This document shows positions 20,262-45,029 of a DNA stretch of 64,000 nucleotides, one piece after another. Below the pieces are notes generated by a model. It saw nothing but the letters and a program-made list of their open reading frames with translations, ran no database searches and had not been told where the DNA came from. Numbering within the stretch: position 1 is the stretch's first letter; each line of letters starts with the position of its first letter. Made by a program: the position numbers and the translations under genes. Source of the DNA: Candidatus Zixiibacteriota bacterium (lineage in GTDB: Bacteria; Zixibacteria; MSB-5A5; JAABVY01; JAHJOQ01); contig JAHJOQ010000092.1 in NCBI GenBank assembly GCA_018820315.1, forward strand, positions 6,591 to 70,590, in the 5' to 3' direction.

Positions 20262-20795
20262 TCACTCACTGGTCAGTTTCACAGTCTCGACAGTTTTCGT
20301 GGTGTAGACTGCATCCCGGTCGATTTCACCATTGCCGCCACTGATCAGAAAGCCAAGCCCAAGCAGCCATGAAATAAACTTCTTGCTCTTGCCTTTGTTT
20401 TCGAGCTTGCCTGCAAGTTTGATCGGGGCTCCGTCAGTCGCCTTGAATGCTCCCTCAGCCAACAAACTGACAAATGCGACTTCGATGTAGCCCGGTTTGC
20501 CTCGCTTGCCGTTCTTCTGCACTTTCGTAACAACGGCTCTGCTGGAGGCTCCCTCGGCGACAATAGTGCTGTCATCAACGACTATCGCCTCTGCAAGAGC
20601 GAGTACCAGGGAATCACCTTTCTCCAGATTTTCTGACGATATCCTATCATCACTGACAAACCTGAGCTTGACTTCAGTGTCCTTTATAACCCTGACCGTG
20701 ATTCCAGCGTCTGCGCTGGGCACGAAGAAGGCTGCTGAGAACAGGAAAAGCAGAACTGCCGAAAAAACAAGTCTTGTGATCGTTACCATTTTCAT
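20262..20795 (-). CDS. periplasmic/secreted hypothetical protein (cleavable signal peptide, no Cys) at the distal end of the T6SS locus
   Basis: MKMVTITRLVFSAVLLFLFSAAFFVPSADA signal peptide. No lipobox. Lys-rich C-terminal amphipathic segment. Confidence 0.5.
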   Translation of the reverse strand: MKMVTITRLVFSAVLLFLFSAAFFVPSADAGITVRVIKDTEVKLRFVSDDRISSENLEKGDSLVLALAEAIVVDDSTIVAEGASSRAVVTKVQKNGKRGKPGYIEVAFVSLLAEGAFKATDGAPIKLAGKLENKGKSKKFISWLLGLGFLISGGNGEIDRDAVYTTKTVETVKLTSE

Positions 20796-20828
20796 ATTTA
20801 TGTCCCTCCGTACGTGTGAGATTGATTC

Positions 20829-23024
20829 CTATTCGAGTACCGGAAGTCTATCACCGAGGCTTGGATTGAATTGAATCTTGACACTCTTTCCGAGATTGTC
20901 GAAGACCACGCCCTTCTCCATATCAAACAGTGAGTACTTGTCATCCAGAAGAGCAATGTCGCTAGGATCCTTGCCTCTGTCGCAATTCTTGTCGGCGGCA
21001 CAGAAAACTATGTGAATGTCATCTCCTATCTTCCATTCCAGTTCCCCAGTATCACCCTGGAAAGTCTCTCCCAACTTTTCCCACTGCGGAGCCTTCCCGT
21101 CATCGGTGACTTCGATGTAGAGCGCACCCTGATCCGGAACAGTGACAACTTTGTAATTGAATGTCTGTCGTTTTTTGGACCAGTTCTTTGCCGCGCTCAG
21201 ATAGCGACTCACCTTGGCAGCGTCACTGGAACCGAGCTGCCCCTGCAGATCCTGAAGAGTCCTCACGGCGTCGTCTAAGCGGTATCCTGGTTCATTGTTC
21301 CCGTTTATCACGTCAACAAGGTCCTCAAGCTTAGATCCAGCCTGTCTTGACTCCACCACGCGTACCTTGGTCACTTTCAGAGCCTGCAGCGCACCCATCA
21401 GGGCTACTTCGCCCTTGCTCAGTTCGCCCTCGAAATATGTCTTGTCCGATTCGATCTGCTCGGTGATTTGCGATAGAGGGAGAGTGTCGGCTTTAGCATT
21501 GATATAGATCTTGAACAGGCTCCAGTACCATAGCGATCGATCACTTCTTTTGAAAAGAACGGAACTTGAGTCACCCGTATGAAACTCTGCGAGATCGCCT
21601 TCCAGCGCGATATGATTCTCGTTGAGCTTGGGGATGGTATCCTTCGGATTCGCTGTCGGCCACTGTGATGAATCTGCCACGACCGCCGCGAAACGATTTA
21701 TCGCACCATCAAGCTTCTCTATGGCATCCCGGATATTGAAGTTTCTGTAAGTCTCCGATATCGTTCTTGCCACGGGCGAGAACTTCGGAAACAGCCACTT
21801 CACCGTGAGTGCTCTCGAATACCGATCGAACTTGCTTATTATGAGTGGACGCTCCTTGTCAGTGACACTCAGATACTGGCCGGAGTGTCCTTCAAGTATG
21901 TTGTCTTCAACCTTCGTTGTCTGCGGAAGCAGGAACTGGAAGTGATACAGATTCGGAATCGAATACAGCACAATCCATAGGATGCTGACAGTGACGACAA
22001 ATCTCGTAAATTTGCGAACTCTGGTGATCGCCCGGTTCCTCATTACCGATTTCAGCATCCAGTAGAACGGTTCCTGCAGACCGACCGGTCTGAGTATCCT
22101 CGGAGGCTTGTAAATCGACCGTCCGACATCAGTGCCGACCTTCTCCGGCGATTGCCCGGTGCATGAGAGGAAGAAGACCTGGAAATTAAGCGTTCTTCGG
22201 ACGATGATCTTAAGGAACTCCTTCATCTTGACCAGAATAGTTCTGACCGATCCTGCCCATTCGGAATTTGACGCGATTTTGTTGCTGCTGAGAACTTTGT
22301 CGAGAAAAACTTCAAATTCCTCAGAGAAGAACTGCTCGTCTTCGGGGCGTACAAGTACTGTCTGGCTCTCACCTGTGAAGCCGGGGAGGACGTCCGCTTT
22401 TGTGATCACGAGCGCAACCGGAATTGGCATCTGAGAACTTAGAGGTGCCAATCGTTCCAGCATTGTGATGAAGGAGGCGACATGCGCCTGGCTTTCCAAT
22501 TCTGCGCCGAGCAGCTTGGGATCATAGAAAAACATGATGCCGTGGGCACCATCCATGAAGTCGATGACCTTCTCTTTGAGTTCACCGCCTTCCCTGATGG
22601 AGACCGCTTTGCCTTCGTAGTCATATGTCACTACAGATAGCTTCTCATCGCGATCGAGGATAGCGTTGAATTGAAGCAGTCTCTCACCTTCGGTAGGATC
22701 GGGAAACTTCTGATCGCCTCGCATGTCAACTATCGTTCCGACGGCTGAAGTGCTGCCGAGACCCCAGATGTGCCTGTAGTTGACAAGGAATTCGCTTGCT
22801 GTAGCGCTGTCTGTCACCGATATCTGAAGGTTCTTCGATACCTTGCTGTCCTCATGCAGCGTAGTGAAATAAACGGATTTGCCCGAATTTGTGTGACCAT
22901 AAACGCCGATTCGGATTCCTGAAGGCCATTTGTACTTGGCTACCGGGGCAGGCCCCTTCTTCCTGGAGGAGGCTTTGAATATCTTCTTGAAGAACTTGAA
23001 TACTTTGGTAGCTGCTTTTATCAT
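20829..23024 (-). CDS. T6SS membrane-complex candidate: N-terminal P-loop GTPase-like domain, single central TM, about 370-aa periplasmic domain (TssM/IcmF-like, shortened)
   Basis: G1 GHTNSGKS at aa 43-50 and G4-like ITKAD. TM FTRFVVTVSILWIVLYSIPNLY near aa 335. Position next to the TssL-like gene at the end of the T6SS core operon. Confidence 0.4.
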   Translation of the reverse strand: MIKAATKVFKFFKKIFKASSRKKGPAPVAKYKWPSGIRIGVYGHTNSGKSVYFTTLHEDSKVSKNLQISVTDSATASEFLVNYRHIWGLGSTSAVGTIVDMRGDQKFPDPTEGERLLQFNAILDRDEKLSVVTYDYEGKAVSIREGGELKEKVIDFMDGAHGIMFFYDPKLLGAELESQAHVASFITMLERLAPLSSQMPIPVALVITKADVLPGFTGESQTVLVRPEDEQFFSEEFEVFLDKVLSSNKIASNSEWAGSVRTILVKMKEFLKIIVRRTLNFQVFFLSCTGQSPEKVGTDVGRSIYKPPRILRPVGLQEPFYWMLKSVMRNRAITRVRKFTRFVVTVSILWIVLYSIPNLYHFQFLLPQTTKVEDNILEGHSGQYLSVTDKERPLIISKFDRYSRALTVKWLFPKFSPVARTISETYRNFNIRDAIEKLDGAINRFAAVVADSSQWPTANPKDTIPKLNENHIALEGDLAEFHTGDSSSVLFKRSDRSLWYWSLFKIYINAKADTLPLSQITEQIESDKTYFEGELSKGEVALMGALQALKVTKVRVVESRQAGSKLEDLVDVINGNNEPGYRLDDAVRTLQDLQGQLGSSDAAKVSRYLSAAKNWSKKRQTFNYKVVTVPDQGALYIEVTDDGKAPQWEKLGETFQGDTGELEWKIGDDIHIVFCAADKNCDRGKDPSDIALLDDKYSLFDMEKGVVFDNLGKSVKIQFNPSLGDRLPVLE

Positions 23025-23063
23025 GGTATGTTCACGGCACCGGATTTAGGGTCTCTGTCCGTG

Positions 23064-23987
23064 TTATCCTCCGATTCCTTCCTCTACATTCGTGGCTCTT
23101 TCTCTGAGTTGCTCAAGCTTGGTGTCGGTATATGTACTCCAGAGAACGGGAACAGCTACTGCAGCAAGAAGAAAGAGTATGATGATCATCGAGTAAAACA
23201 AATATGCCGGCTTGCGCTGCGAGATAATCAATCTCAGGTAACGTCCACTCAGGAACGCTCCTTTGATCTTACGGAACAGCTCACCGAACCAGCCAGCAAC
23301 TCGTGCCCAGAAATCGCCTTTCTTCAGGTAACCCCACTCCGACAACAACTGCTTAAAGAGTCTATTCTTCGAACCGAGCTTCGTGAATGAATCGATCCTC
23401 AGCAGGTGAAACTCGAGGGATGCTCTGTCCTTAAGGAGATCCTCACCGAGTTCCTGGCGTCGCCGAGCAAGCTCAAGAAACTTCATCGGATCGCTCATCG
23501 AATTGAATGCCTCAGGCGTGAGGTCGCCTCTCAGGCGCTTGCCGAAGGTGTTAAGGAATCGGGCTATCTCCCGCAGGAAAAATGCGTTTAACTGATAGTT
23601 GTCTTTAAGGCTTCCCGGTTTGCAGAGCATGGGTACGAGGTGATTCTCGAAGAATGGCACATCCTGCTTCACGGCTCTGAGCCCGCGGCAATGCGAATAG
23701 GCTTGATTCGAACGGCCGTCAGTATCCGCCTCAGACTCGAAGTACGTGATAAGTATCTGGACTGCAAACTGCCTGAGGTCCGATGTTGTCAGAGGATTCT
23801 CTCGCACCCGGTCAAGCAGAAAGTAATCAAGCTCGACAGCCTGGTCGCGCTGCTGACGAAGCGGCTGGAAGACAGTATAGACACCGTTGTAGGTCTGAAA
23901 GAACGCTTCAGTCTTGAAGCTCGAGTACTTAGTCTCGTAAGTGTTGATGTATTTAAATAAGTCTTCTACGTAGTTCTTCATTTTCAT
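23064..23987 (-). CDS. T6SS membrane-complex candidate: cytoplasmic domain with single C-terminal TM anchor (TssL/DotU-like architecture)
   Basis: 307 aa, soluble about 260-aa N-terminal domain. Then YLFYSMIIILFLLAAVAVPVLW TM and a short tail, as in tail-anchored TssL. Placed directly after tssK. Confidence 0.4.
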   Translation of the reverse strand: MKMKNYVEDLFKYINTYETKYSSFKTEAFFQTYNGVYTVFQPLRQQRDQAVELDYFLLDRVRENPLTTSDLRQFAVQILITYFESEADTDGRSNQAYSHCRGLRAVKQDVPFFENHLVPMLCKPGSLKDNYQLNAFFLREIARFLNTFGKRLRGDLTPEAFNSMSDPMKFLELARRRQELGEDLLKDRASLEFHLLRIDSFTKLGSKNRLFKQLLSEWGYLKKGDFWARVAGWFGELFRKIKGAFLSGRYLRLIISQRKPAYLFYSMIIILFLLAAVAVPVLWSTYTDTKLEQLRERATNVEEGIGG

Positions 23988-24009
23988 GGCTTCCTTGCCT
24001 GGTCAATTG

Positions 24010-25458
24010 TCAGACTGCATATATCATAAGATCAAGCTTGCCGAGTCCGGAGAACTTCTTCGGATCGCCAACTCCCCTAAATATCAAAGTAACCTTGTTC
24101 ACAGATGGCGACTGGAGCATATCCTGCGGCCGCAGCGCGACCTTCGCGCCGAAGGTGACAGCGTCAACCTTAACCGGATCTGTCTCGCCCAAGCCTCTGG
24201 CCTCATTGACTCCGAACCTGACCTGCATATTGGTCCATTCCGCTGTGCTGAACAAGTCTTTGGACATCAGAACGACTGTGTCCGAAACAGCCTGAGGATT
24301 CTCGATGTTTATCAGCAGGTAGCTGAGCTCTCCAACCTGTTCCAGATTGCACGACTGGAATGGGACCAGTCTGTATGTACGGTTGTTATATGTCAGGCTG
24401 TCTTCAGCGGAGGCCTCTCTTCCAAGTTCATCTTTCCTGATCTGAGCCAAGAAGCCAAGCACGCCCCGGAGATCGCTCAGGATTGAGTCGATCATGCCCA
24501 CCTGGTCCCTGATATTCTGGTGGTCGTACTCAGAAAGCAGAAATGAGTCTATCGCAGCCATGAACCTGCCTACGTCAGTGCTTCGCTCCTTCGTGAAGTG
24601 CTTCTCGTTCAGATAGTCCTTCAGGCCGGGCTGTAGATTTAAAAGAGTAGCGAGAACACGGAACAGACTCTTGAAATGAACCACCATGCTGAGCGGGTGC
24701 GATGCGTTCCTGCCAAGTACGAAGCTGTCGAGAGTAGAGGAAATGTGATATGCCATCAAGAAGACAGTATCCTTGAATGCTGCCTGAAGATCAGTCTTCT
24801 CGCCAGCGAGTAATCCCTCAGTCGTTATAGCTGCAAAGGCTCGAGACGACAGTGAGAGCAGACTCTCAAGCCTGTTGCGGAAGTCCGTTGCGGTCTTAAG
24901 CAAATTTTCGTCGGCATTGATCGTCACACAAGGCGGACAATATCCAACGGAGAAGTGTGCTTCTGATCCCGTAACCTTTAGTTCAGCAACCTGCACGAAC
25001 ATACTTTCGGGCATATTCGGCCTTTTCCCCAAATGAAGGCCATATCCTGCCGCCAAATAGGGCATCCTCGGGATCTCCTCCTCAGGATCAGGATCTCCAA
25101 CCTCTCGCTTCTCCGATGGCTTTACGCTGATGTAAACCGGCATTGGACCGTCCGTTAGATCAGTCTCCGCCTTCAAGCTCAGTTTCTCTGACTCGCTGAT
25201 GTCAATATAGCTGCCATTCGGAGTCAGTGCCTGACAGCGCGTAATGGTGACTCGCAGTTTGTCGCCACTGGCCATCATATCAATGCTCAGTGCAGGCTTG
25301 CCAGACAGTGACTTCCGTACCAAGCCGTAGCTGTCGGCAACATCGAGATTGTGCCAGCGTGCTAGATCTTCAAAGTAGCTTTCCTGGTCCTTGAGATGCT
25401 GCTGGGTTATCAGCATCCCATCCTTCCAGTTTACAGAATATAACTTCAAGTCACTCAT
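24010..25458 (-). CDS. tssK: type VI secretion system baseplate subunit TssK
   Basis: N-terminus KLYSVNWKDGMLITQQHLKDQE matches the TssK shoulder-domain signature (W.EGM.L.PQHF). 482 aa. Sits between tssG and the TssL-like gene. Confidence 0.62.
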   Translation of the reverse strand: MSDLKLYSVNWKDGMLITQQHLKDQESYFEDLARWHNLDVADSYGLVRKSLSGKPALSIDMMASGDKLRVTITRCQALTPNGSYIDISESEKLSLKAETDLTDGPMPVYISVKPSEKREVGDPDPEEEIPRMPYLAAGYGLHLGKRPNMPESMFVQVAELKVTGSEAHFSVGYCPPCVTINADENLLKTATDFRNRLESLLSLSSRAFAAITTEGLLAGEKTDLQAAFKDTVFLMAYHISSTLDSFVLGRNASHPLSMVVHFKSLFRVLATLLNLQPGLKDYLNEKHFTKERSTDVGRFMAAIDSFLLSEYDHQNIRDQVGMIDSILSDLRGVLGFLAQIRKDELGREASAEDSLTYNNRTYRLVPFQSCNLEQVGELSYLLINIENPQAVSDTVVLMSKDLFSTAEWTNMQVRFGVNEARGLGETDPVKVDAVTFGAKVALRPQDMLQSPSVNKVTLIFRGVGDPKKFSGLGKLDLMIYAV

Positions 25459-25528
25459 GGCATTGCCTCTATCGTTAATCCGAAAATTTACTGATGCTCA
25501 TAGAAGATGTCAAGGTTAATATCTCATG

Positions 25529-26437
25529 CTATACATAACTGGAATAGCCGAGATAACCACAATCTGCTTTTCTCCCGATCTGCATACGTTTTTGCTCGCC
25601 CATAACTTTTATTTGGCTGACAAGATTGCTTGGCATGCACAGGTCGAGCGCTCTTTCCACTTTTTCTCTTATACGCCCACCCGGCACAAACTCGCCGATG
25701 TCTTCAGTCTTCACATCTCTGATGATGACGTCATAGGCAGAATCGCACTCTGAAAATGACCGTCCCACGAGCGAGTTCACCGCGAGTCTGCTCTCTGCCG
25801 ACCCAAGACTGAAACAAATCCCTCTCGCTATTTCAAATGTTGATGACACGTTCTCGATGATTTGACACTCATATCCGGCCAGATGCGTGAGAACCTTCTC
25901 GACCAACTCAGCATTGCCTGCCCAATGATGGTACATGGGGAGAAGAGTGAACCAAAACATAAGCTCCGAAAATGAACCTGAATGTCGATCGGAATCAAAG
26001 TCGAATAACTTGAGAAAGCGGTGAAGATGCTCCTCTTCGACAAAACTAAGGCTGAATGTGAGAGCATCTCTCTTCGCAATGGACGTGTATCTTATCACCG
26101 AAGCATCAAAAGGTGCCATCAGTTTCCGGGATTGCATATCCCAATCGTCGGTGCGGGCAGTGGAGCCACTGAGTCCGTAAAAGAACTGATACGGCATATA
26201 ATCAACTGCACTATTGTAGCCTATCATCAGGACAATTTTGGAGCCAGGCCCGACTGGAGTTCCCGCCGAAGGATTCTGTTCAATAACTTCGCCCTTGTAG
26301 TTTTCGTACTCGCCGACAGCAAGTATATCTACACTGCGGATATCAATGCAGGTCTTGCCGAGAATGTTGAGAGCAGTGGCGAAGTGAAGCGGGTGCCGTC
26401 TACTGCAGAGCTCAGGCATTATCATTTCATCGGTCAT
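25529..26437 (-). CDS. tssG: T6SS baseplate subunit TssG-like (gp7/gp53-like), assigned mainly by size and position
   Basis: 302 aa. 4-nt overlap with the upstream tssF-like gene. Canonical tssE-F-G order. Confidence 0.4.
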   Translation of the reverse strand: MTDEMIMPELCSRRHPLHFATALNILGKTCIDIRSVDILAVGEYENYKGEVIEQNPSAGTPVGPGSKIVLMIGYNSAVDYMPYQFFYGLSGSTARTDDWDMQSRKLMAPFDASVIRYTSIAKRDALTFSLSFVEEEHLHRFLKLFDFDSDRHSGSFSELMFWFTLLPMYHHWAGNAELVEKVLTHLAGYECQIIENVSSTFEIARGICFSLGSAESRLAVNSLVGRSFSECDSAYDVIIRDVKTEDIGEFVPGGRIREKVERALDLCMPSNLVSQIKVMGEQKRMQIGRKADCGYLGYSSYV

Positions 26438-28104: not shown

Positions 28105-28127
28105 CGCGAATAGCTTTCGTCCAGAGC

Positions 28128-28502
28128 CTAACCAATCACAAAGGTGCCCTCAAACTTCTTCTCTTCATCGTTATCACGGTAGCTGCCGGAGACTTTGATT
28201 GCAAGTCCTATTGGATGTGAGTTCGACCCCTCCACATTTGCGAAAGAGACCGACACATTGTAGAGCATTTTCTGGGATCGGTCAATTGCATTGCGTAGAC
28301 CTGCTCTGATATCGGATTTGTTGGCGGTATAGAGGTCGGAATATTCTTTGTCCCAAATTTCGCAGCCGTATCCCGGATCGAATGGTATTGAGCCGACTCT
28401 TGTGGAAAGAATCAGCCCGATAGAGTATCTTATTGATTCATCGAGCGCCGCTCTGGAGAGATAGCCCTCTCTCAGTACCAGAGGTAGTGACAGGTATTCC
28501 AT
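28128..28502 (-). CDS. tssE: T6SS baseplate wedge protein TssE (GPW/gp25 family)
   Basis: ESIRYSIGLILSTRVGSIPFDPGYGCEIWD matches the gp25 lysozyme-like core motif. 124 aa. Confidence 0.7.
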   Translation of the reverse strand: MEYLSLPLVLREGYLSRAALDESIRYSIGLILSTRVGSIPFDPGYGCEIWDKEYSDLYTANKSDIRAGLRNAIDRSQKMLYNVSVSFANVEGSNSHPIGLAIKVSGSYRDNDEEKKFEGTFVIG

Positions 28503-28512
28503 TGAGTAGTCA

Positions 28513-30231: not shown

Positions 30232-30302
30232 ATGAACCTTTATTCAGATAATTGTCAGCCGGGCAGGGGATGTCCTCCTGCCCGGGCATAATCGAAAGAA
30301 AC

Positions 30303-30707
30303 TTATTCTTCCCAGCGGTTATCTATCGTCGCGTCACCGATCGTAAGGTCATGACAAGATATCTCGAAGTACTCGTGAATCTGGTCATCAGGACTGTTCT
30401 TGACGTGAGGGATCATCTCGATGTACTCCGTAATGAACCCCTCGTTCCACGTCAGCTCCTTCATCATCGCATCTGTTGGATTCTTGAAGGTCACCTTGCC
30501 GGCCTTCCAGTTTGGTGCGCTCGAATCCATTGCCCAACGAGCAATGTCTGACGTCTCGTCTGATTCTCTTCTGACCTTGATTGTGCCGGCATGAGCGCGG
30601 TCTGATGGACGGCCAGTTTCATCCTTGGCTGTGTACAGCCTGTAGCTGACCTCATAGACGTTCTTGTAGACGACGCCGTCGATTTCGAGAGTCGGTCTCC
30701 GTGCCAT
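30303..30707 (-). CDS. hcp: T6SS tube protein Hcp (TssD), Bacteroidetes/T6SS-iii sequence type
   Basis: LEIDGVVYKNVYEVSYRLY...GRPSDRAHAGTIKVRRESDETSD follows the pattern of FCB-type Hcp (L.IDG..Y...GRPS...GG.I...ES.E.S). 134 aa. Confidence 0.68.
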   Translation of the reverse strand: MARRPTLEIDGVVYKNVYEVSYRLYTAKDETGRPSDRAHAGTIKVRRESDETSDIARWAMDSSAPNWKAGKVTFKNPTDAMMKELTWNEGFITEYIEMIPHVKNSPDDQIHEYFEISCHDLTIGDATIDNRWEE

Positions 30708-35288: not shown

Positions 35289-35459
35289 ATTAGACTATAG
35301 CACTCCATGCTTCTAGTTCGATATTCCGCAGTTGTATCAGCCCCGTAGATGCATCTCTGCGCTCAAAGTGTCTGTCTGACGACCGAACCGATAATAGCGT
35401 TATATAAATCCTATGTCAAGAGCTTTTATGACCCAACATAGGGCATTCCAGGCCTTCCG

Positions 35460-36665: not shown

Positions 36666-39600
36666 CTCTTTCGATTGTATACACTTTGTGAGTGTCAGTT
36701 CCGAATATCCCTCCGCCAGAGGTGTCCGAGTCTATCTGAATCTCGAAGTTCCACCTGCTGTCGAAATCGTAATGGGAAACGAGAGGGCTTCTCTGATTGA
36801 ACTTTATCGACATGAAGATTGATCGCTCGTTGTTGCCGGCAACGAAATTGAAGAACGTCTGCGCATCCCTGCCGCGCGGTATTATCCATCGGCTTGAGCC
36901 GTCATATTGCATCTGAATCTTTTTCCACTCTCCATCGGCGGCATAGACATAAATCACAATGTCTTCCAAATTCACTAAATTGCGTACATGCTGGAAAATA
37001 ACCAATCTGAATCTGTAGTCGACCGTCCCGCGATGTTCGTCGCGGATGAGGAACTTGTCCGATTCGAATGTCTCAAGGACTCGATCATGGTGACCGATTG
37101 TCGGGTTATTTTCAAGTATGTCATAATAGTCAACTGCTACCGCTATTCGCGGCTTTGTAGCCGCCTTGACAGGCTCCATCCTCTCGACATCACCCGCTGA
37201 ATCGAAGCAGATCTTCGAACCTGCCGAGTGGTCACTTCCCACGCCGTTGAACTCGCCTGCCTTGTTGAGTCTCGGATGCGGCCCTGCGGAGTCTGACACT
37301 ATCACTATGGGAGTGACTCGCCTGCCGGTAGCTCTAAGCGCAGGATAATCTGAGAAATCGTAGTAGCTGGTTTTCACCGAATTGTCACCGCTGTAATCTA
37401 GTCGGTTAATGGTGTAGAAGCCTCTTCGATGCGAATGCCCCGTCAATACGACCTGTATGGTGCGGCGAGTGACAAGATGTTCTTCATAGAGCGGCTGTCT
37501 GTTGGTCTCGAATGTCCCCTGATCATGATCGTCTGCATCCCAGTATGTGTCGAATTCCACATCTCCCTCTTCAGCAGTGCTCATGGGGATGCTTTCGAGA
37601 TAGCTGACAAATGTGAAGTGGCTTGTGAATATGATCTTCTTCTGATCTTCGATTGCGCGGTTCAACAGTGCAAGCTGAGTGTCGGTCACTGGATCATCGG
37701 CTCTCGGAAGATGGCCGAAGCCCTGATCTATTCCGGGGAAATCTAGCACATCTTCCTCATCTCCCCACGCCATTCCGACAAGGTTTTGGTCAGGAAATCC
37801 TGAAGCGAAATCAGAGAAAGGAGTGAACACAGTATAGAACCACTGAAGTTTCTCGTAATGGAACGTACCCATTTCCTTGACTACCCCATAAGTCTCTCCG
37901 AATGCGAGTGTCGCTTCATAGATGGTCAGATTGTGATCCGCAGCGATGCCGGGATTGGCACGGACCCATGCGACTCGAGGAGAGATACCGTATGGCAGCG
38001 CATACGCATCGTGATTTCCTGTGACAACGTAAACGGGCTTCTGATATCTCTTGTAGAAATAGACTATGAGCGTATATAGGGCGATAGCGTCAACATAATC
38101 CTGATATCTTGATTCGTATGAATCGTCGAGGGCAACCTGATCCCAAATCTGCTTAACCGTTCTACTTGTCCTGTCCGGATAGAGCATTTTGTTGAAATCA
38201 ATGAGATCTCCTGTAAGCATGAGCGCGTGGATCCCAGGATCACTTCCTACGCGGTCAAGCAGGGACTTTATGATGCGCGTGGAGACTCCAATCATAGAAC
38301 CTATTTTGGGAGAATCCTCCAGCGGGATTTCTTCCTCAGCGACAATCAGCGTCACTTGAACCTGCTGTGGCGAGTTGTTCGCCTCCGCAGATGAGATCGT
38401 AATCGAAGACTGATATGTGCCTGGTTCCCTGCCGCTGGCATTGGTGGAAATGAGAGCTGAATTTGGATTGTCGGATGTAGTAACGCCCGATGCAGGACTG
38501 ATGCTTACCCAGTCATCATCTGGAGCTGCAGTCCAATTCAGTGTGTCGCCTCCGGTATTGACTATGGTGACCGATTGAGGTCCTGTGTCGGCACCGCCCG
38601 GATGTGCAACAATCGCAACCGACTCGGGAGAAACGTGAAGGTGCGGAGGATTCTCAGTCTGTGGTGGCGGAGAGGAGGGAGGCACGACGATCTCCTCTCC
38701 CGGATATATCAGATCGGGATCGCCGCTTCTGAGACGCTGCGAATTCGGGATACCTGTTCCGCCGTCATAGTGCCAGAGCTGCTGCCATGTCATGCCATAG
38801 CGTGAGGCAATCTTGGAAAGCCAGTCGCCGCTCACAATGACATAGATGTCATATGTCGGGGCGGGAGAGGGGGGAGACTGAGAATCAGATTGAGTCTCCG
38901 ATGGTGTCTCAGATGATGGCGGTGCGCCTTCGGATGGCTGCGCTGCGACCGTCTCAAATGGATACTCAATGACCCTTGCTTCGCATCTGGACAATACGGT
39001 CTGCCTTGCGGCAAGGTGAATGTCTGTCAGATGTCCCATGTTCAAGTATGGTGGGCATTGCTCGTAATAGACCACAGGATGATAGGCCTGAATAGGGTTC
39101 ATCAGATCCGCTTCTGTGTGGTCAACATCATCTTCAGTTAATCTATAGCAGTACTGTCCACCCTCGATTATATTGGGACCATTCATATTTCGGAGAACAG
39201 TTCTTATTTGATCATCCTGAATCTCGTTTGATGTAATCTTTCCCGGTTCGACGCGATTTAGAGTATGTGTTGGAACGACACCCGGTCCGGATGCGGGAGC
39301 AGCACCGGCGGATGTTATCTCATGCCAGGTCTGATCATGCGGATAGAGCCAGAATAGATTATTAACACCGTTGGCGAGCAGATTAGTGTGTCTGATGGAG
39401 ACGCAGTACAACTGCGTGTACGCCGCGTCACGAAGCATCTGAAGGGATTGGCTGTCAAGAACCCCTTTGAATCTGGTGTCAGTGGCTATGACATTTTCAT
39501 CTAAGACTATACTGCGGAAAGATATTTCAACCGACCCATCCAATTGCGAAAGAGGATTAACTGAGAAACTTTTGGCCGGATCAAGGCCTCCGGTGATCTT

Positions 39601-39786
39601 TATCTGATAATCGATGTTGTCATTGGATAGTGTATAACCGTCATTTAGGAGTATTAGCAATTCAATATCCCGGGGACTCTGCGTGCCCACGACTACCTGC
39701 GGGGTTAGCAGCGACGGATATAATATCATTGCGGGAATGGCATAAATTACATCGTGACGTCTTCCGGTTGTACCTTGTGGACTCAT
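36604..39786 (-). CDS. large multidomain protein (1060 aa): N-terminal domain, Pro/Ser-rich linker, LysM peptidoglycan-binding domain, Ig-like domain, calcineurin-like metallophosphoesterase domain
   Basis: LysM: YDIYVIVSGDWLSKIASRYGMTWQQLW...LIYPGEEIVVP. MPP motifs: ALMLTGDLID, YVVTGNHDAY, VLTGHSHRRG. Confidence 0.6.
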   Translation of the reverse strand: MSPQGTTGRRHDVIYAIPAMILYPSLLTPQVVVGTQSPRDIELLILLNDGYTLSNDNIDYQIKITGGLDPAKSFSVNPLSQLDGSVEISFRSIVLDENVIATDTRFKGVLDSQSLQMLRDAAYTQLYCVSIRHTNLLANGVNNLFWLYPHDQTWHEITSAGAAPASGPGVVPTHTLNRVEPGKITSNEIQDDQIRTVLRNMNGPNIIEGGQYCYRLTEDDVDHTEADLMNPIQAYHPVVYYEQCPPYLNMGHLTDIHLAARQTVLSRCEARVIEYPFETVAAQPSEGAPPSSETPSETQSDSQSPPSPAPTYDIYVIVSGDWLSKIASRYGMTWQQLWHYDGGTGIPNSQRLRSGDPDLIYPGEEIVVPPSSPPPQTENPPHLHVSPESVAIVAHPGGADTGPQSVTIVNTGGDTLNWTAAPDDDWVSISPASGVTTSDNPNSALISTNASGREPGTYQSSITISSAEANNSPQQVQVTLIVAEEEIPLEDSPKIGSMIGVSTRIIKSLLDRVGSDPGIHALMLTGDLIDFNKMLYPDRTSRTVKQIWDQVALDDSYESRYQDYVDAIALYTLIVYFYKRYQKPVYVVTGNHDAYALPYGISPRVAWVRANPGIAADHNLTIYEATLAFGETYGVVKEMGTFHYEKLQWFYTVFTPFSDFASGFPDQNLVGMAWGDEEDVLDFPGIDQGFGHLPRADDPVTDTQLALLNRAIEDQKKIIFTSHFTFVSYLESIPMSTAEEGDVEFDTYWDADDHDQGTFETNRQPLYEEHLVTRRTIQVVLTGHSHRRGFYTINRLDYSGDNSVKTSYYDFSDYPALRATGRRVTPIVIVSDSAGPHPRLNKAGEFNGVGSDHSAGSKICFDSAGDVERMEPVKAATKPRIAVAVDYYDILENNPTIGHHDRVLETFESDKFLIRDEHRGTVDYRFRLVIFQHVRNLVNLEDIVIYVYAADGEWKKIQMQYDGSSRWIIPRGRDAQTFFNFVAGNNERSIFMSIKFNQRSPLVSHYDFDSRWNFEIQIDSDTSGGGIFGTDTHKVYTIERDVDRAEIPDYEWRRRFEKYR

Positions 39787-39810
39787 GCTGACAACACCGT
39801 GCGCATTTGG

Positions 39811-40677
39811 TCAGTTCTCTCTTTCAACTTCAATGGAGCATCTTCCGGGCGGAACATCTTCCTCCCTCGCAGTGCCATCTCCGCCAAATGTACCTCGTCG
39901 CTGGCTTCCGTCAGCAAGATGGAGAATGTAGCTCTCGTTTCCGGTATAGTTGAGAACTCTGATCTCAATCCAATCCTTGAAGATCAATAACCCCGATTCT
40001 TGCTCCCGCCCATACTCAATATCATTGAGCTTGATCGTGAAGAAGTACTCCGGGGAATTGTAATTGCGACCGTACTCCTGCATCTCTTCTTCTGTCGGAA
40101 TTTCGTCAGTATCTTCGTGATATTCGTATTCCCATTCCTGTTCGATTTTATCATCGATCACTTCAGCCCTCAGCTCAGTGATCTTGTCATGAGCACTGTC
40201 GCGATCATATTCATAGATGGTAAGCATCACCTCGGTATGGGGGCGAACATTCCTCACATCGGCTGAGAGTGTGAGCGTGTCGCCTCTGCGAGCCTCGCTC
40301 TGACTCCATCTCATGTTCGAAATCTCCGGAGGAGGCACAACGGGTATTCTGTCCGATTCACCGTCCAGTCCGTTGTCTGGAAGCTTGACCTCGAAGTATA
40401 TCTGATCGTCTATTTCGGTGTCTTCCGGGATCTCGAATTCGCCGTCGTAAACGTTGTTGCTGATTGTGGCGCTGATCTTGCCAAGATTCTCGCCATTCTC
40501 GCTCTTACCTTTGATCTTGATCTTAGCGCCGTTACCGACGAACGCCGTCCCAATCGTGAAGCCGGCAGTCTGACCTGCAATAGCCGCGCCCCGTTTCCAG
40601 ACCGCATAGATCAGCGACGAATCGAGCTCGATCTCGTGTTCTTCGTCGGTGCTTTTGTTGAAAGTCAGATCAGGCAT
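39811..40677 (-). CDS. hypothetical acidic protein (288 aa) in T6SS accessory region
   Basis: Long ORF with good coding periodicity, co-oriented and tightly packed with neighbours. No recognisable motif. Confidence 0.4.
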   Translation of the reverse strand: MPDLTFNKSTDEEHEIELDSSLIYAVWKRGAAIAGQTAGFTIGTAFVGNGAKIKIKGKSENGENLGKISATISNNVYDGEFEIPEDTEIDDQIYFEVKLPDNGLDGESDRIPVVPPPEISNMRWSQSEARRGDTLTLSADVRNVRPHTEVMLTIYEYDRDSAHDKITELRAEVIDDKIEQEWEYEYHEDTDEIPTEEEMQEYGRNYNSPEYFFTIKLNDIEYGREQESGLLIFKDWIEIRVLNYTGNESYILHLADGSQRRGTFGGDGTAREEDVPPGRCSIEVEREN

Positions 40678-41116
40678 CGTCTACTTCTGCAATTTCGTAC
40701 GTTCCGGGTACGAGGGCTTCGATCAGTTTCATCATTCCGACGCCGACAGTCTTCAATGTCTTCTTCGAAAACTCACCGGAAAATGTGAACCCGATTCCGT
40801 CTTTTATCACAAAGACATATTTGTGGATAGCTTGTACTCCGCCGGATGGTGTCCACCTATAGACGAATTCGTGCGCCTGATTGCCTCGATCGAGAGTGAT
40901 AGCTTCATCTTTGAGAACATCAACTCCTTGAAGAGTCGATTTTATCGGATCGATCCACTCCTTCGCGAAGTCGGCAACATCGAGATGTTGAAGCTGTCTG
41001 TTCAGCACAAGTGTCACCTGATGTGCAGTCTCGCCGTCGCTCGGTCCTCGAAAATGATAAACGGTTTGATCTTCCCAGCCACGGGGAATGTCCAGCTTGA
41101 AAATAGTCTCACTCAT
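40670..41116 (-). CDS. hypothetical small cytoplasmic protein (148 aa); adaptor/chaperone or immunity candidate
   Basis: Co-oriented, 8-nt overlap with the downstream gene. Compact alpha/beta-like composition. No signal peptide. Confidence 0.4.
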   Translation of the reverse strand: MSETIFKLDIPRGWEDQTVYHFRGPSDGETAHQVTLVLNRQLQHLDVADFAKEWIDPIKSTLQGVDVLKDEAITLDRGNQAHEFVYRWTPSGGVQAIHKYVFVIKDGIGFTFSGEFSKKTLKTVGVGMMKLIEALVPGTYEIAEVDDA

Positions 41117-41118
41117 AG

Positions 41119-42027
41119 TTACTTCTCTAATGACCTGATGAAGCGTTCCGCCTCTTTAACTTGTCCTTCACTATATATCAGAAACTCATCTGTTTCGAAC
41201 GAGAAGGGTCTGTCATACCATACAGCGATAAGATTGATTGCTGCGTCGCATACACGGGCGAACTCCGGGTCCGCTTCGGGATGGCCGATGTCATACGCAT
41301 CTGAAGTATCGGCGAGGGCTGGGAGGAGACGTGAAGCGAGTCGCTTATCACTTATGTATTCCAGAGCAAGAATGACATCATAGCGACCCTCAAGAGGGGG
41401 AGTATCGATCTGAGACGCAAATTCATTCTTGAATTCCTCGTCGCCAAGCCTGGCCATGGCCAGTTTGATCTGTTTTCCCACGTTTGCATCGTCTTCCTGA
41501 TCAAGTTGTTTCCGGAGAGGCTTCATCGCACTCGCATCATCGATTCTACCGATCAATCGAGCTACGCCGCCCCTCACCACCGCATCTGTGTTGCTTAGGT
41601 TTGCTATCAAACCCTGCAGGATAGCACTGCTGATGCGAGAGCGGATGGACTGCAGAGCCGACGCGCGGACTTGAGCATCTTTGTCCCACAGGGCTTCGAC
41701 CAGAACAGTCGGGACACTCTCATCGTCGGTGAGCACCACGCAACTGAGAGCAAGCTCTCTGGTCTCGGGGTTCTCATTCTTAAGCAGCTCCAATAAGACC
41801 GGCATTGCAGGTGAACCGATCTCCTCGGCCTGGAGGAGTGCGTCATCGCTATCTTCCAGAACGGCTTTTCTAAGGCTATCGAGTTCCACTTTGTGTTCCC
41901 CTCTGCTTCTTTGCTGATCTCGGCCACCACATGCGATGTGGACGGCAACTACCAACGTCAGCACCAAGAGATACCAAGTGCTGACTCTCACGAATTTCAT
42001 CCTGTTCCTGCTGTGCCTATCAATCAA
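41119..42027 (-). CDS. HEAT/PBS-lyase repeat protein with N-terminal signal anchor (periplasmic; immunity-protein candidate)
   Basis: N-terminal TM VSTWYLLVLTLVVAVHIA. Repeated HEAT-like helical pairs (PETRELALSCVVL..., DAVVRGGVARLIGRI..., GKQIKLAMARLGD). 4-nt overlap with the upstream effector gene. Confidence 0.55.
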   Translation of the reverse strand: MIDRHSRNRMKFVRVSTWYLLVLTLVVAVHIACGGRDQQRSRGEHKVELDSLRKAVLEDSDDALLQAEEIGSPAMPVLLELLKNENPETRELALSCVVLTDDESVPTVLVEALWDKDAQVRASALQSIRSRISSAILQGLIANLSNTDAVVRGGVARLIGRIDDASAMKPLRKQLDQEDDANVGKQIKLAMARLGDEEFKNEFASQIDTPPLEGRYDVILALEYISDKRLASRLLPALADTSDAYDIGHPEADPEFARVCDAAINLIAVWYDRPFSFETDEFLIYSEGQVKEAERFIRSLEK

Positions 42028-43733
42028 GGATTCCTGTAAAAACTGGCTGACGACGCATGCCTCCGCGCATTATGACATTCATTGTCAGTTCGATCCGCTG
42101 GATTGTCTCTAATACTGATATCTGCGCCCTTATTCCGATTACCGTACCCGACGTTATGGCACCATCGATCACCCGCTCGCGACTGAAAAGGCCAGAGACC
42201 GTACATAAGTCTCTTGAGTGACCAGAAATCGGTCTTCTTGTGTGCAGAGTCGGGATCATCCTCTGAATGCGCAAGCGACGGATTTCTGAATCCATTTGCG
42301 AGCGCCATAGCATGGCCAAGTTCATGGGCGAGTGTCCTACCGATTTCGACCGCAGTCGAATTGAAGGCTCCACCCGTGCTGGCAAGGGCAATCCCCACGA
42401 GAGGCCAATTTCGATATCGCTTTGTCGAGTAGGTGATTCCGAATGCACCCTCTATATTTCGCACTACATACAGATTCAGTTTATTATCCTCAGTGGCGTG
42501 TCCCTCGGAGTCATTCGTCGTCATGATCGTGCGATATTCGGCATTTACCGATCCCCACGTTATGATGCCGGATCGCGACAGTGTCACAGCTTTTTCACGC
42601 CAGGCTGCAGTTCTGAATCTGACTCCGATTGGCCAGAGAATTTCGTTCGCAACGGCGATAGCATCATTGATCAGTGCCTGATTCCCGACTGGCGCCATTG
42701 CGCCGGTGTAATGAACACCACCCGTATCGTGGTCGGAGCCGTTTATTGTCAACCAATAGGGGCGAATAGTCTTGACTATCAGGGGAAGCACAACCACCTG
42801 AAGCGAAGCAATTTCTATTCGCTCCCGACCGCGCTTGAATTTGATCTTGACCGATGTGCTTCTCGGAACCGCTCCGCTGGGAGTCTTGGTCCGAAGCTGA
42901 AGTATGATTTCCCTGCCTGTCGGCAAAGGGTCGGGTGACACTACTTCCACGAGGGCAGTGTCCTCACTTTCCGCCATCAGTGACGTATTGCTTGCGAGGC
43001 ACTCTCTGGTCAGCTTGAGACGAAACGGCGTCTCGCGTGCCATCGTCACAACTGGCCCCTCCAAGTCAATATTGGCACATTTAGTTTCTATGAATCCTCT
43101 GACATCCGGTTCGGGAGCTCTGCCCCAGGGGCGTCCGGATGTAACCGTTGCATCAGTGTTCGACGGTGCCCTTTCGAATCGAACCAGCGAACGACGAATA
43201 ATGAAGACGTCATCAGTCGTATTGTCATCATCGGTAACCGAGTTCAATCTGGTTCGTGTTGTATTCCTGGCAATGCCGTCTGTTCTCAATCCGGTATCAG
43301 CCTGAAATCTCAGAATGGCTTCTTCCGATGCCTTGCCGAAGGTGCCGTCGACTTTGCCCGTGTAGTAACCGAGAAGCTGCAGTCTGCGTTGTATACCGGC
43401 CTGCATGGTGCCGTGCCCCACGCCTGAGTTTGCATTGCAATCGCCGAGAGTATCCCAGGCTGCCAGACAGATATCTTCGCCTGGGGCAGGTTCATTGATC
43501 TCACCATGTAGCTGCTTGACGACATAAGTTGTGCCGAGGACCGTCAATCGAGCGGTTCCGCCTTGGGCGATGCGCAGACCATAGTAGCCGTTGCCTTGCG
43601 GCCTGACCGGCGTATCCGAACCTTCAAGTGTGGCATCGCCACCATTGATAATGCTGTCGGCGTCGACGCCGGGTACTTTCTGAAAGCTTAGCAGCACATC
43701 AGCGGTCGTTGCCTCAACTTCCTGGTGACACAT
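42024..43733 (-). CDS. T6SS effector candidate: peptidoglycan-binding domain (PG_binding_1) + C-terminal HExxH zinc metallopeptidase domain, no signal peptide
   Basis: IQRRLQLLGYYTGKVDGTFGKASEEAILRFQADTGLRTDGI matches the PG-binding repeat. RTLAHELGHAMAL is a zincin HExxH site. Located immediately downstream of the PAAR gene. Confidence 0.62.
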   Translation of the reverse strand: MCHQEVEATTADVLLSFQKVPGVDADSIINGGDATLEGSDTPVRPQGNGYYGLRIAQGGTARLTVLGTTYVVKQLHGEINEPAPGEDICLAAWDTLGDCNANSGVGHGTMQAGIQRRLQLLGYYTGKVDGTFGKASEEAILRFQADTGLRTDGIARNTTRTRLNSVTDDDNTTDDVFIIRRSLVRFERAPSNTDATVTSGRPWGRAPEPDVRGFIETKCANIDLEGPVVTMARETPFRLKLTRECLASNTSLMAESEDTALVEVVSPDPLPTGREIILQLRTKTPSGAVPRSTSVKIKFKRGRERIEIASLQVVVLPLIVKTIRPYWLTINGSDHDTGGVHYTGAMAPVGNQALINDAIAVANEILWPIGVRFRTAAWREKAVTLSRSGIITWGSVNAEYRTIMTTNDSEGHATEDNKLNLYVVRNIEGAFGITYSTKRYRNWPLVGIALASTGGAFNSTAVEIGRTLAHELGHAMALANGFRNPSLAHSEDDPDSAHKKTDFWSLKRLMYGLWPFQSRAGDRWCHNVGYGNRNKGADISIRDNPADRTDNECHNARRHASSASFYRNP

Positions 43734-43740
43734 GAATCAG

Positions 43741-44916
43741 TTACCTCGGGAGTCTTCTCGCTCCTGACAAGTTGGGGAATTCGACTCGACTCTGTTCGGG
43801 CGGGATGTTCGCTTCAATTGCCTCGCCGTTACTGTCAAGAGTCCCTCTGCGGACCTCGCCGTTTGCGAAACGCACCACATAGGCCTCGGATGCGATCGGA
43901 TTTCCATTTTCGTCTTTCAGCACTATCTTGAGGCTGTCGCTGATCTGGAGCATGCCTGAACGGGCCCGGCAGCTTCCGACATCAACGATGAAGTAGAATC
44001 GCGGAAAGGCGTAGCTCTGCGTGCGAGATCTGCCGAGAGTCGGATCACCCGTCCTACCTCTGTAACGAAATGTCCACTCGGCCTCGACGTTGTCGCCGCT
44101 CGATTCAGCTTCGACCGCATCCACAAGCTCATCCGCAGCAGATGCATTCTTCTTGAATATCTGGAACACGGCCGCTGTACCCGATTCGAAGCCCGATATC
44201 CCAGCCTGCAGGGTGACCGCCTCACCGACTCTGGCCGTAGTGGCTGACCATGTGGCGCTGGTTACGGCTCTGACCGAGACTTCATAGCTGCCTTCCTGCA
44301 CGCCGCTCTGTCTGATTCTGCCTGCAAGTGCGCCTTCGGTTGTCTCGCCATCGGGGGATGTCACAGAATATCTGGCTCCCGTGATTGGTCGCCCTCCACC
44401 ATCAACGAAATTAACATCGAGATAATGCTGCTCTTCTACCTCCGCCTCGTCGGAGGTGCCCTCGCTCTGCCCGCCGCCTGCCTGGCCGCCTCCACCGCCG
44501 CCGCCCCCGCCGCCATTGCCGATCAAAACATTTGGGCTGCCGATTATTATCTTCGCCTTGTTTGTCGGAGGTTTCTGAAATGCTGTGCCTGGAGGTGTAG
44601 GGATATGTGGGGGAGTATTCGATGCCTGGCTGTCGACAGTTGCCGCTGGCAAGCCCTCGATTTTGACCGACGAGCTCAGTCCGCTGTCGAGCATTCCCAT
44701 GAATGGATGTGGCAGGGGAGTAGGTACTGGACCGCCGGGGGTCGGTACCATGACGATATGAACGTCGACACCGACGACTTGATCATTCTGCTTGGCAGCA
44801 GGCATATTGTTGATCAGAACTGTCACCGCTGTACCGATTACCGTACCGACCGGCATGTCAGTCGGATCGTTGCAGGTCATCGCCGTGTCGCCCATTCTTG
44901 CGGCAGGTTTTCCCAT
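43741..44916 (-). CDS. PAAR-domain spike-tip protein with Gly-rich linker and about 220-aa C-terminal extension
   Basis: MGKPAARMGDTAMTC...VIGTAVTVLINNMPAAKQNDQV contains literal PAAR motifs. Poly-Gly linker GGGGGGGGGGGQAGGG. Start taken at internal ATG 44916; the track uses TTG 44943. Confidence 0.72.
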   Translation of the reverse strand: MGKPAARMGDTAMTCNDPTDMPVGTVIGTAVTVLINNMPAAKQNDQVVGVDVHIVMVPTPGGPVPTPLPHPFMGMLDSGLSSSVKIEGLPAATVDSQASNTPPHIPTPPGTAFQKPPTNKAKIIIGSPNVLIGNGGGGGGGGGGQAGGGQSEGTSDEAEVEEQHYLDVNFVDGGGRPITGARYSVTSPDGETTEGALAGRIRQSGVQEGSYEVSVRAVTSATWSATTARVGEAVTLQAGISGFESGTAAVFQIFKKNASAADELVDAVEAESSGDNVEAEWTFRYRGRTGDPTLGRSRTQSYAFPRFYFIVDVGSCRARSGMLQISDSLKIVLKDENGNPIASEAYVVRFANGEVRRGTLDSNGEAIEANIPPEQSRVEFPNLSGARRLPR

Positions 44917-45029
44917 GGTTCCCCGGAGTTGTCTCTCGTTCAATCAACGGCAGAAAAGTTAAGAATGTTTGCGGCAGGAGTCAACAAATAGTTGTCAGGG
45001 GTGTTTCACCATTTGTGCTCAGATTCGAC

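Follow-up and report, generated by a model that had tools for sequence, protein, structure and literature searches.

The 64,000-nucleotide stretch of contig JAHJOQ010000092.1 from a Candidatus Zixiibacteriota genome, hereafter called the window, contains a cluster of twenty genes for a type VI secretion system (T6SS), and this system probably falls outside the four recognised T6SS classes. It combines a contractile module of the T6SSiii type with a ClpV that is encoded by two genes and with an envelope anchor that should be formed by the products of the last three genes, g18, g19 and g20, of which g19 encodes a membrane GTPase. The cluster represents a complete, conserved and apparently undescribed T6SS variant that is known from its genes alone, its function being predicted from them.

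The twenty co-oriented open reading frames (ORFs; g01 to g20) are all located on the minus strand at 20262–44943, and most neighbours overlap by 1–8 nt or are separated by 2–39 nt; some spacers are longer, with gaps of 70–171 nt, and g07 and g06 overlap by 62 nt. Hidden Markov model (HMM) scans of the twenty proteins with Pfam and NCBIfam, together with BLASTP comparisons, agree with the initial annotation of the window in that these packed genes include those for PAAR, VgrG, Hcp, TssB, TssC, TssE, TssF, TssG, TssK and ClpV. That annotation had let the operon end with two membrane proteins; there are actually three conserved genes at this end, the one at 20262–20795 for a protein of 177 amino acids (aa) having been passed over. 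It had also described strong Shine-Dalgarno sites, and these precede some of the twenty genes, though not all.

Gene g18 (23064–23987) encodes a 307-aa tail-anchored inner-membrane protein in the position of TssL. The predicted fold (AlphaFold2; predicted local distance difference test score, pLDDT, 84) consists of an all-helical cytoplasmic domain, residues 1–220, and a single C-terminal membrane helix that follows basic residues. The product of g19 (20829–23024) is a 731-aa membrane GTPase in the position of TssM, and in the model (pLDDT 82.7) a cytoplasmic GTPase domain at about residues 30–310, with the P-loop GHTNSGKS and the motifs DMRG and TKAD, is followed by a long helix at 317–378 with a hydrophobic membrane-spanning segment at about 340–362, a periplasmic helical domain at 392–617 and a C-terminal beta domain at 620–731. 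The topology first proposed, a tail-anchored protein and then a P-loop protein with one helix, is borne out by the models and the sequences of both proteins. Gene g20 (20262–20795) encodes an exported beta-rich protein of 177 aa, the third conserved envelope component. Its sequence and the family alignment show a cleavable signal peptide, a loop with the invariant motif GKPG and, as a short hydrophobic segment, LSYLFIFGLFIKGG. The spacers from tssK through g18 and g19 to g20 are 22–39 nt. No family was matched above threshold by any of the three proteins, GAP1, zinc-ribbon and FNIII included, and the profiles of the three families gave nothing meaningful against the PDB sequences. A comparison of g18 with eight TssL proteins by hhalign found nothing, and no DotU signal was seen by hhalign or in the Pfam scan of the g18 family members. 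For g20, a lipobox cysteine is missing from 30 family members, Pfam and PDB give no TssJ signal, each Pfam family seen at E≤1 is limited to at most 5 of 29 members, and PDB yields no match. We read the periplasmic part of g19, and g20 as a whole, as new, and apart from the GTPase the module has no detectable relatives among known proteins.

When one genome per GTDB species was scanned, at least 118 species genomes were found to encode a relative of g19, most of them labelled Zixibacteria and a few Krumholzibacteria, Latescibacterota, Calditrichota, GN15 or, as a third-party annotation (TPA), Ignavibacteriales, where the labels are those given to metagenome-assembled genomes (MAGs) and are unreliable. 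The g19 protein of the window itself has a 100% identical counterpart in a candidate division Zixibacteria MAG. The order ClpV C-terminal half, TssB, TssC, Hcp, VgrG, TssE, TssF, TssG, TssK and the 307-, 731- and 177-aa proteins is invariant in about 40 long loci, in which the 5' end of the gene for the ClpV D2 part is cut by the edge of the locus, the N-terminal half being visible only in the metagenome loci L081–L087. Since this synteny from ClpV D2 to g20 is kept in about 40 loci, the gene block is not a chance arrangement. Median identities across the relatives are 54% for g18, 48% for g19 and 39% for g20, and g20 was found by BLASTP in 75 of the 80 loci kept and by tblastn in 69. An exhaustive HMMER search with the g19 family profile gave 161 matches at E≤1e-3 among 1.84 billion representative proteins.

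Below the full-length g19 family there is a second tier of proteins of 617–1053 aa, where the common part is the GTPase and the membrane helix only. Three of these (P0280, P0399 and P0282) are located in T6SS loci of a lineage with a high GC content of about 70% (L176, L177 and L180), where TssE-TssF-TssG come first, followed by four reverse genes and then by TssK, a g18 homologue, the GTPase, a GAP1-N2 protein and a g20 homologue. The g18 homologues show 25–28% identity (E values from 1e-23 to 1e-25) and the g20 homologues 30–32%. The GAP1-N2 proteins, of about 1000 aa and with a predicted membrane segment, are encoded at 12504–15443 in L176, 12492–15518 in L177 and 12570–15464 in L180. Among the six encoding contigs examined for second-tier members, five are T6SS loci (L176–L178, L180 and the window) and the sixth, L179 with 5 kb, is too short to show neighbours. 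The trio should thus constitute an envelope module, since it is fixed directly after tssK in two far-apart lineages, and this is the main argument for the proposed anchor. The four conserved reverse-strand genes between tssG and tssK (3019–7236 in L176, and likewise in L177 and L180) encode one TPR protein and three proteins of unknown family, and the block has no counterpart in the Zixibacteria locus.

The sheath, tube, spike and baseplate are encoded by g10–g17. The small sheath subunit TssB is encoded by g10 (32262–32702; PF05591 T6SS_VipA, 9.4e-7), and it is linked by BLASTP (3e-14) to the product of a 148-aa gene adjoining TssC in the T6SSiii of Bernardetia. The large sheath subunit TssC, encoded by g11 (30818–32245), is of the T6SSiii type (PF17541, 2.5e-69) with no match to VipB (PF05943); it shows 28% identity to the Bernardetia TssC (E 1e-55), and no BLAST match to the T6SSi TssC of Pseudoalteromonas. 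The tube protein Hcp/TssD of g12 (30303–30707) had been taken for the T6SSiii type in the initial annotation, and this holds, with PF17642 at 1.7e-19, no match to the proteobacterial T6SS_HCP family, 41% identity to the Bernardetia Hcp, and the Bacteroidales TssD structures 7yw0 (1.1e-12) and 6bdc as the closest solved ones; at E≤1 no PDB chain beyond T6SSiii-type Hcp/TssD entries was matched. The VgrG spike is encoded by g13 (28513–30231; PF04717 8.4e-26, PF05954 3e-17, TIGR03361 1e-40; BLASTP 1.5e-58 to the Bernardetia counterpart), and the gp25-like baseplate wedge TssE by g14 (28128–28502; PF04965 1.4e-10, TIGR03357 1.6e-5). TssF is encoded by g15 (26434–28104), which matches the generic baseplate assembly family TIGR02243 (1.9e-10) and a protein of L177 with 26% identity (E 8e-24); the L177 protein is matched weakly by Pfam T6SS_TssF and its L180 counterpart has a match that is not marked as weak, so that the identity of g15 is transitive. 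TssE and TssF are also linked by BLASTP to Bernardetia counterparts. TssG is encoded by g16 (25529–26437; PF06996 1.4e-10, TIGR03347 2.3e-10) and TssK by g17 (24010–25458), with TIGR03353 at 2.3e-13, under its cut-off, and a BLASTP match (7e-22) to the product of a 388-aa Bernardetia gene adjoining tssO, the presumed TssK of that T6SSiii. TssK is expected to be the docking partner of the membrane module. A two-subunit sheath, a tube, a spike, a baseplate of TssE, TssF, TssG and TssK, and ClpV are therefore all present by HMM and BLASTP. As controls, the Bernardetia T6SSiii matches PF17541, PF17642, TssN and TssO, and the Pseudoalteromonas T6SSi matches VipB, VipB_2, T6SS_HCP and DotU; because the controls discriminate in this way, PF17541 and PF17642 can serve as markers of T6SSiii as opposed to T6SSi. 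The Pseudoalteromonas locus matches the window by BLASTP only through ClpV, VgrG and, weakly, TssM. Among the twenty proteins there is no match to DotU, none to TssJ or TssM at the family threshold, and none to ImpA_N, in accordance with the initial annotation, which had seen no TssA.

A review of August 2026 recognises four T6SS classes, i–iv, and places T6SSiii in Bacteroidota only (PMC13584744), and the scan for T6SSiii by Bongiovanni et al. yielded no genome outside Bacteroidota (PMC10781749). The membrane complex of that class comprises TssN, a protein with five membrane helices whose gene is located between tssK and tssG, together with TssQ, TssO and TssP that have one N-terminal membrane helix each, and TssR, a lipoprotein of 790 aa; TssN and TssP are nearly ubiquitous in T6SSiii, and the origin of the complex has been called difficult to identify (Bongiovanni et al., PMC10781749). 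The system in the window resembles T6SSiii in the families of TssC and TssD, in that TssB, TssK, VgrG, TssE and TssF are best matched by T6SSiii copies, in the absence of TssA, and in that both hosts belong to the Fibrobacterota-Chlorobiota-Bacteroidota (FCB) group. It differs in its host, a member of the Zixibacteria with relatives in neighbouring candidate phyla, in a TssC of about 28% identity, and in the anchor, where g18-g19-g20 with a GTPase stand where T6SSiii has TssN, TssO, TssP and TssQ, along with TssR. Neither TssN (PF17555) nor TssO (PF17561) is matched in the twenty proteins at E≤0.01, or at E≤1 in 40 members of the g18 family, 40 of the g19 family and 29 of the g20 family, and the Bernardetia T6SS proteins, including the annotated TssN and TssO, gave no TssN or TssO match by tblastn in the window. 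The TssNQOPR complex, a defining feature of T6SSiii, was thus not found in the window, since tssG and tssK are adjacent and neither TssN nor TssO is matched. This agrees with the earlier suggestion of a T6SSiii-like machine in an FCB lineage other than Bacteroidota, with a membrane module that is not TssNQOPR; hits to TssN, TssO or TssP had been named there as the sign of an ordinary T6SSiii, and the TssN and TssO profiles matched nothing. The reference locus from Bernardetia sp. (L161/L175) is located on a non-mobilizable plasmid of 51 kb from a Cytophagia bacterium (NZ_CP147019.1), where a large share of the sequence is taken up by the T6SSiii genes and by arrays of Rhs/AHH effector and immunity genes; TssC, several TssD, VgrG, gp25/TssE, a TssF-like protein, TssN, TssO and ClpV are annotated on it, and TssP, TssQ and TssR are not.

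The GTPase of g19 is closest to the Pfam family DO-GTPase2, which matches all 40 of the g19 family members scanned (best 1.2e-8), the window protein scoring 19.5 bits and hence under the gathering score of 27 bits. IcmF-related_N is a poorer match, with 25 of the 40 (best 3.9e-5), all under its gathering score; Ras, Arf and Dynamin_N match none of the 40 at E≤1, and SRPRB, MMR_HSR1 and DUF463/YcjX at most two. For comparison by hhalign, nine TssM proteins and the eight TssL proteins were taken from annotated plasmid T6SSi loci. The g19 GTPase profile is collinear with the TssM NTPase over 252 columns, beginning at the P-loop and reaching up to the membrane helix (P 2.1e-5), with common motifs of the form PIPVaLVvTKaDiLpGF against PVYvvfTKaDliaGF and QiFFiSxTGQ against RGvYFtSatQ, and the profile of the GTPase from the high-GC lineage aligns to TssM over 301 columns (P 2.4e-7, hhalign probability 93.5%). 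The two profiles score 44.9 and 59.5, whereas twelve column-shuffled versions of each score 12.6–24. Compared as single sequences with TssM, six genuine DO-GTPases score 24.6–33.2, g19 37.4 and P0280 47.5.

The resemblance to the TssJ-TssL-TssM anchor of T6SSi extends to the order, tssK being followed by a gene for a tail-anchored helical protein and one for an NTPase with a membrane helix and a periplasmic part, and to the layout of TssM, which consists of a cytoplasmic P-loop domain, a membrane helix, a helical periplasmic domain and a C-terminal beta domain. The differences are considerable. With 731 aa, g19 is much shorter than the nine TssM proteins (1140–1309 aa); it has a single membrane helix and lacks the N-terminal hairpin formed by the first two membrane helices of TssM, its periplasmic half shows no similarity to that of TssM (hhalign P 0.13) and no detectable IcmF periplasmic domains, and these features argue against a close relationship; in the structural comparison the periplasmic part could not be separated from the GTPase domain. 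In addition, a DotU signature is absent from g18, g20 is neither a lipoprotein nor linked to TssJ by any signal, and the tail proteins differ in type from those of T6SSi. A weak periplasmic match of the window g19 to TIGR03348 (TssM), seen in one of the 40 members, was discarded as chance. The initial description of the two membrane proteins as TssL/TssM-like is therefore confirmed in part only, by the collinear NTPase domain; among Pfam families this domain is closest to DO-GTPase2, and no similarity to TssM is seen in the periplasmic part.

Kaur, Burroughs, Iyer and Aravind (2020) defined the DO-GTPases, with GAP1 proteins as partners, as membrane-proximal conflict systems that occur as stand-alone pairs, and the passages retrieved from that paper contain no link to a T6SS or a contractile tail (PMC7159879). 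The GAP1-N2 gene directly after the GTPase gene in the high-GC lineage ties the DO-GTPase/GAP1 proteins to a T6SS locus. In the Zixibacteria locus, in contrast, the GTPase domain is single and GAP1 is absent, and the T6SS-linked GTPases outscore genuine DO-GTPases against TssM. By its sequence the g19 GTPase appears to be distantly related to the DO-GTPases as well as to the NTPase domain of TssM; on balance we favour distant homology to the TssM NTPase, and homology of g18 to TssL is possible, with the balance slightly against it. The parallel between tssK-tssL-tssM of T6SSi and tssK-g18-g19 agrees with common descent or with convergent organisation. A match on Gemmatirosa kalamazoonensis plasmid 1 (NZ_CP007129.1; L166, 20001–23159), a TssM-like gene with NTPase and C-terminal regions that match T6SSi TssM, was dropped as isolated, since the T6SS queries of both types match nothing within 20 kb to either side.

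The products of g18, g19 and g20 would together form a complex across the envelope that holds the baseplate by way of TssK and replaces TssJLM of Pseudomonadota or TssNQOPR of Bacteroidota. In such a complex g18 should be a tail-anchored cytoplasmic docking subunit in the position of TssL, g19 would span the inner membrane with its helical and beta periplasmic domains reaching toward the outer membrane, and g20 might be a periplasmic or outer-membrane-proximal partner. The GTPase may serve as an assembly or firing switch, by analogy with Agrobacterium TssM, for which a nucleotide-dependent role is reported (PMC3346141). TssK would dock the TssEFG-VgrG-PAAR baseplate on those parts of g18 and g19 that lie in the cytoplasm, after which Hcp and TssBC should polymerise, and contraction of the sheath would expel Hcp-VgrG-PAAR with cargo linked to PAAR or brought by a chaperone. 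Candidates for such cargo are the extension of the PAAR protein, the peptidoglycan-binding g02 and the LysM-BACON-phosphoesterase g06, with the DcrB-like g04 as a putative chaperone, and the contracted sheath would be recycled jointly by both ClpV polypeptides. Several points weigh against this proposal: the source is a MAG and the machine is known from genes only; g20 has neither a lipobox nor an assignment to a known fold; a component of the outer membrane may be lacking, or its gene may be located at another place; and among the matches listed from the HMMER search of 1.84 billion proteins with the g19 profile there is no TssM, the nearest outgroup being DO-GTPases.

The proposed new anchor has to be weighed against four other explanations. 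The trio could be true TssL-TssM(-TssJ) proteins in an extremely diverged form, so that a T6SSiii-type tail would stand on a T6SSi-type anchor from a common ancestor, and this we hold to be possible but rather unlikely. The gene order mirrors tssK-L-M(-J), the NTPase alignments reach P values of 2e-5 and 2e-7 with the common motifs TKxDxLxGF and F(F/Y)xSxTxQ, and IcmF-related_N is matched by 25 of 40 members with a best value of 3.9e-5; set against this are the missing N-terminal hairpin, the absence of periplasmic similarity (P 0.13) with TIGR03348 in 1 of 40 members, the better match to DO-GTPase2, the lack of a DotU signal and of any TssM among the exhaustive-search matches listed, and the pairing of the GTPase in the high-GC lineage with GAP1-N2, which accompanies DO-GTPases rather than TssM. 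An ordinary T6SSiii, with the trio as much diverged TssN/O/P/Q/R or with those proteins encoded elsewhere in the genome, is very improbable. Tail and baseplate are made of proteins of the T6SSiii type, and TssO, TssQ and TssR are often overlooked through divergence (Bongiovanni et al., PMC10781749), but the topologies do not correspond, as TssN/O/P/Q/R include no GTPase and the trio consists of a tail-anchored protein, a one-helix GTPase and a small exported protein. Moreover, tssG and tssK adjoin here where T6SSiii has tssN between them, and the Pfam models for TssN and TssO that detect the Bernardetia proteins (9e-66 and 1.4e-22) detect nothing in the twenty proteins, nor is there a tblastn match in the 64-kb window.

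The closeness to DO-GTPase2, the GAP1-N2 protein in the high-GC lineage and the stand-alone pairs described by Kaur et al. 2020 (PMC7159879) could also mean that g18–g20 form a conflict or signalling cassette of the DO-GTPase type that merely adjoins the T6SS operon. This is very improbable, as the trio follows tssK on the same strand with spacers of 22–39 nt in the window and, its order being kept, in all long core-gene loci examined and in a lineage of about 25% identity, second-tier genes occur in T6SS loci on every examined contig long enough to judge (five of six, L179 being too short), the locus has no other candidate anchor, and the g19 family is tiny, with its 161 matches in 1.84 billion proteins. 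Extremely improbable is an extracellular contractile injection system (eCIS) or a prophage tail in place of a cell-anchored T6SS. In phmmer searches against solved structures TssC matches only the C-terminal domains of sheaths of the T4, Afp and PVC types, a result that agrees with a PDB lacking a T6SSiii-type sheath, none having been matched at E≤1. Such systems are set aside because TssB and TssC form a two-subunit sheath and ClpV and TssK are present; a T6SS-type Hcp is likewise encoded, and no tail-fibre, tape-measure or lysis family is matched at E≤0.01 in the twenty proteins. The initial annotation had held that a grouping of its tail proteins with phage or eCIS families in the absence of TssK homology would overturn it, and homology of g17 to TssK was found by BLASTP, the NCBIfam match lying under its cut-off.

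A T6SSiii-type tail with a different and conserved anchor would be a natural intermediate for the question of how contractile tails became coupled to the envelope. The carriers of the machine with a g19 relative, at least 118 species genomes, are uncultured sediment and subsurface bacteria, and its presence suggests that Zixibacteria engage in contact-dependent antagonism. With a distantly TssM-like GTPase in the anchor, the ancestry of TssM-type anchors becomes directly testable, and a branch of the DO-GTPase/GAP1 proteins gains a concrete structural context. It might be speculated, tentatively, that the system is a fifth T6SS class that extends across Zixibacteria and neighbouring candidate phyla with the high-GC lineage as its sister, and that its anchor shares an ancestor with TssL-TssM; if a TssM-type ancestry is true, the NTPase anchor would be older than the split between the T6SSi and T6SSiii clades and TssNQOPR a secondary, later replacement in Bacteroidota, and if the link to DO-GTPase/GAP1 proteins is true, these would point to the cellular source that was recruited for the first T6SS membrane complexes. 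For Zixibacteria and related FCB candidate phyla no relevant publication on a T6SS was found, nor was one on a fifth T6SS class, with a coverage of the literature that was incomplete, so that an earlier description is possible.

ClpV had been counted as one gene, and it is actually encoded by two ORFs. The N-terminal half of ClpV/TssH, with Clp_N, AAA+ D1 and lid (PF02861, PF00004, PF17871), is encoded by g08 (33831–35288), and the C-terminal half, with AAA+ D2 and D2-small (PF07724 AAA_2 3.6e-62, PF10431), by g09 (32734–33831). The g08 protein matches positions 4–478 of TIGR03345 ClpV1 (4e-119) and 5–462 of TIGR03346 ClpB (1.7e-126), and the g09 protein covers positions 504–838 and 503–852 of the same models; both halves score slightly higher with ClpB than with ClpV1, and according to the coverage of the models the break is located in the region that matches the ClpB middle domain. 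The TAA stop codon of g08 overlaps the ATG of g09 (TAATG) at 33831, and a strong GAGGGGGTGG ribosome-binding site precedes the ATG; to judge by this junction, the two genes are translationally coupled. A metagenome scan with the N-terminal half yielded largely ordinary ClpB, the informative loci being L081–L088. In all six close relatives among these (L081–L087), and in the distant L088, the two halves are in different frames, and since the split is kept across relatives it is inherited and not an assembly error. The ClpV of the Bernardetia T6SSiii is, in contrast, one protein of 816 aa. If the system is functional, ClpV can operate as two polypeptides; no publication describing a split ClpV was found, within the same incomplete coverage of the literature, and one may exist. 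The L088 metagenome contig carries at 9906–18775 a third, intermediate T6SS, likewise with a split ClpV, in which TssC and Hcp show 40 and 41% identity to those of the window; the contig ends within tssF.

The genes upstream of ClpV, g01–g07, constitute a variable region. The first, g01 (43741–44943), encodes a spike-tip protein with a PAAR domain at residues 10–56 (PF05488 PAAR_motif, 1.8e-7) and a C-terminal extension, and it is likely an effector carrier; its start may be located downstream of the TTG that opens the longest ORF. About 165 aa at its C-terminus are homologous to the C-terminus of the 288-aa g05 protein (39811–40677), which has no Pfam family at threshold, and this common domain may be a cargo or adaptor domain. 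The pair of g05 and g04 (40670–41116; DcrB family, PF08786, 2.5e-8) is kept 5' of ClpV in L081, L082 and L086, where the g05 copies show 57–64% identity beside the g04 homologue and the C-terminus of g01 aligns as well. The g04 protein is a candidate effector chaperone, the DcrB family being presumably equivalent to DUF1795, the fold of the Eag-type T6SS chaperones. Between g01 and g04 are g02 (42024–43733), encoding a 569-aa protein with a peptidoglycan-binding domain (PF01471 PG_binding_1, 1.9e-12) that is a candidate cell-wall-directed effector or accessory protein and has no match in any related locus searched, and g03 (41119–42027), encoding a HEAT-repeat protein of the accessory region (PF13646 HEAT_2, 1.1e-16), possibly an immunity or adaptor protein. 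The 1060-aa product of g06 (36604–39786) contains LysM, BACON and metallophosphoesterase domains (PF01476, PF19190 BACON_2, PF00149 Metallophos) and is a candidate effector; g06-like genes are found in only two related loci, there downstream of the cluster. A pentapeptide-repeat protein (PF13599 Pentapeptide_4, 1.1e-24) is encoded by the accessory gene g07 (35460–36665), whose true start is probably later because the longest ORF runs 62 nt into g06. Only the g04-like DcrB gene, g05 and the PAAR gene recur 5' of ClpV in the relatives, other upstream genes varying from locus to locus, and this variation agrees with an effector and accessory region.

On one side the cluster is flanked by housekeeping genes for CysS, Ddl, QueA, an M42 peptidase and a PMT_2 glycosyltransferase, and on the opposite side by genes for secreted C10 peptidases; because of the housekeeping genes the locus is regarded as chromosomal and without obvious mobile-element context. 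The only promoter-like site oriented towards the T6SS operon is located at 45380–45352 on the minus strand, with a score of 9 out of 12. A σ70 promoter with all 12 of the consensus positions (TTGACA, 16 nt, TATAAT) is found at 45030–45057 on the plus strand, facing the C10 peptidase gene at 45392 and directed away from the operon. The region 45392–49245, divergent from the T6SS genes, encodes two neighbouring large proteins with cysteine peptidase domains, C10 streptopain-like and C39-like, and thrombospondin type 3 repeats. At 4574–8548 a protein of 1324 aa is encoded, in which DUF7901 (1.5e-42) is the sole recognisable domain.

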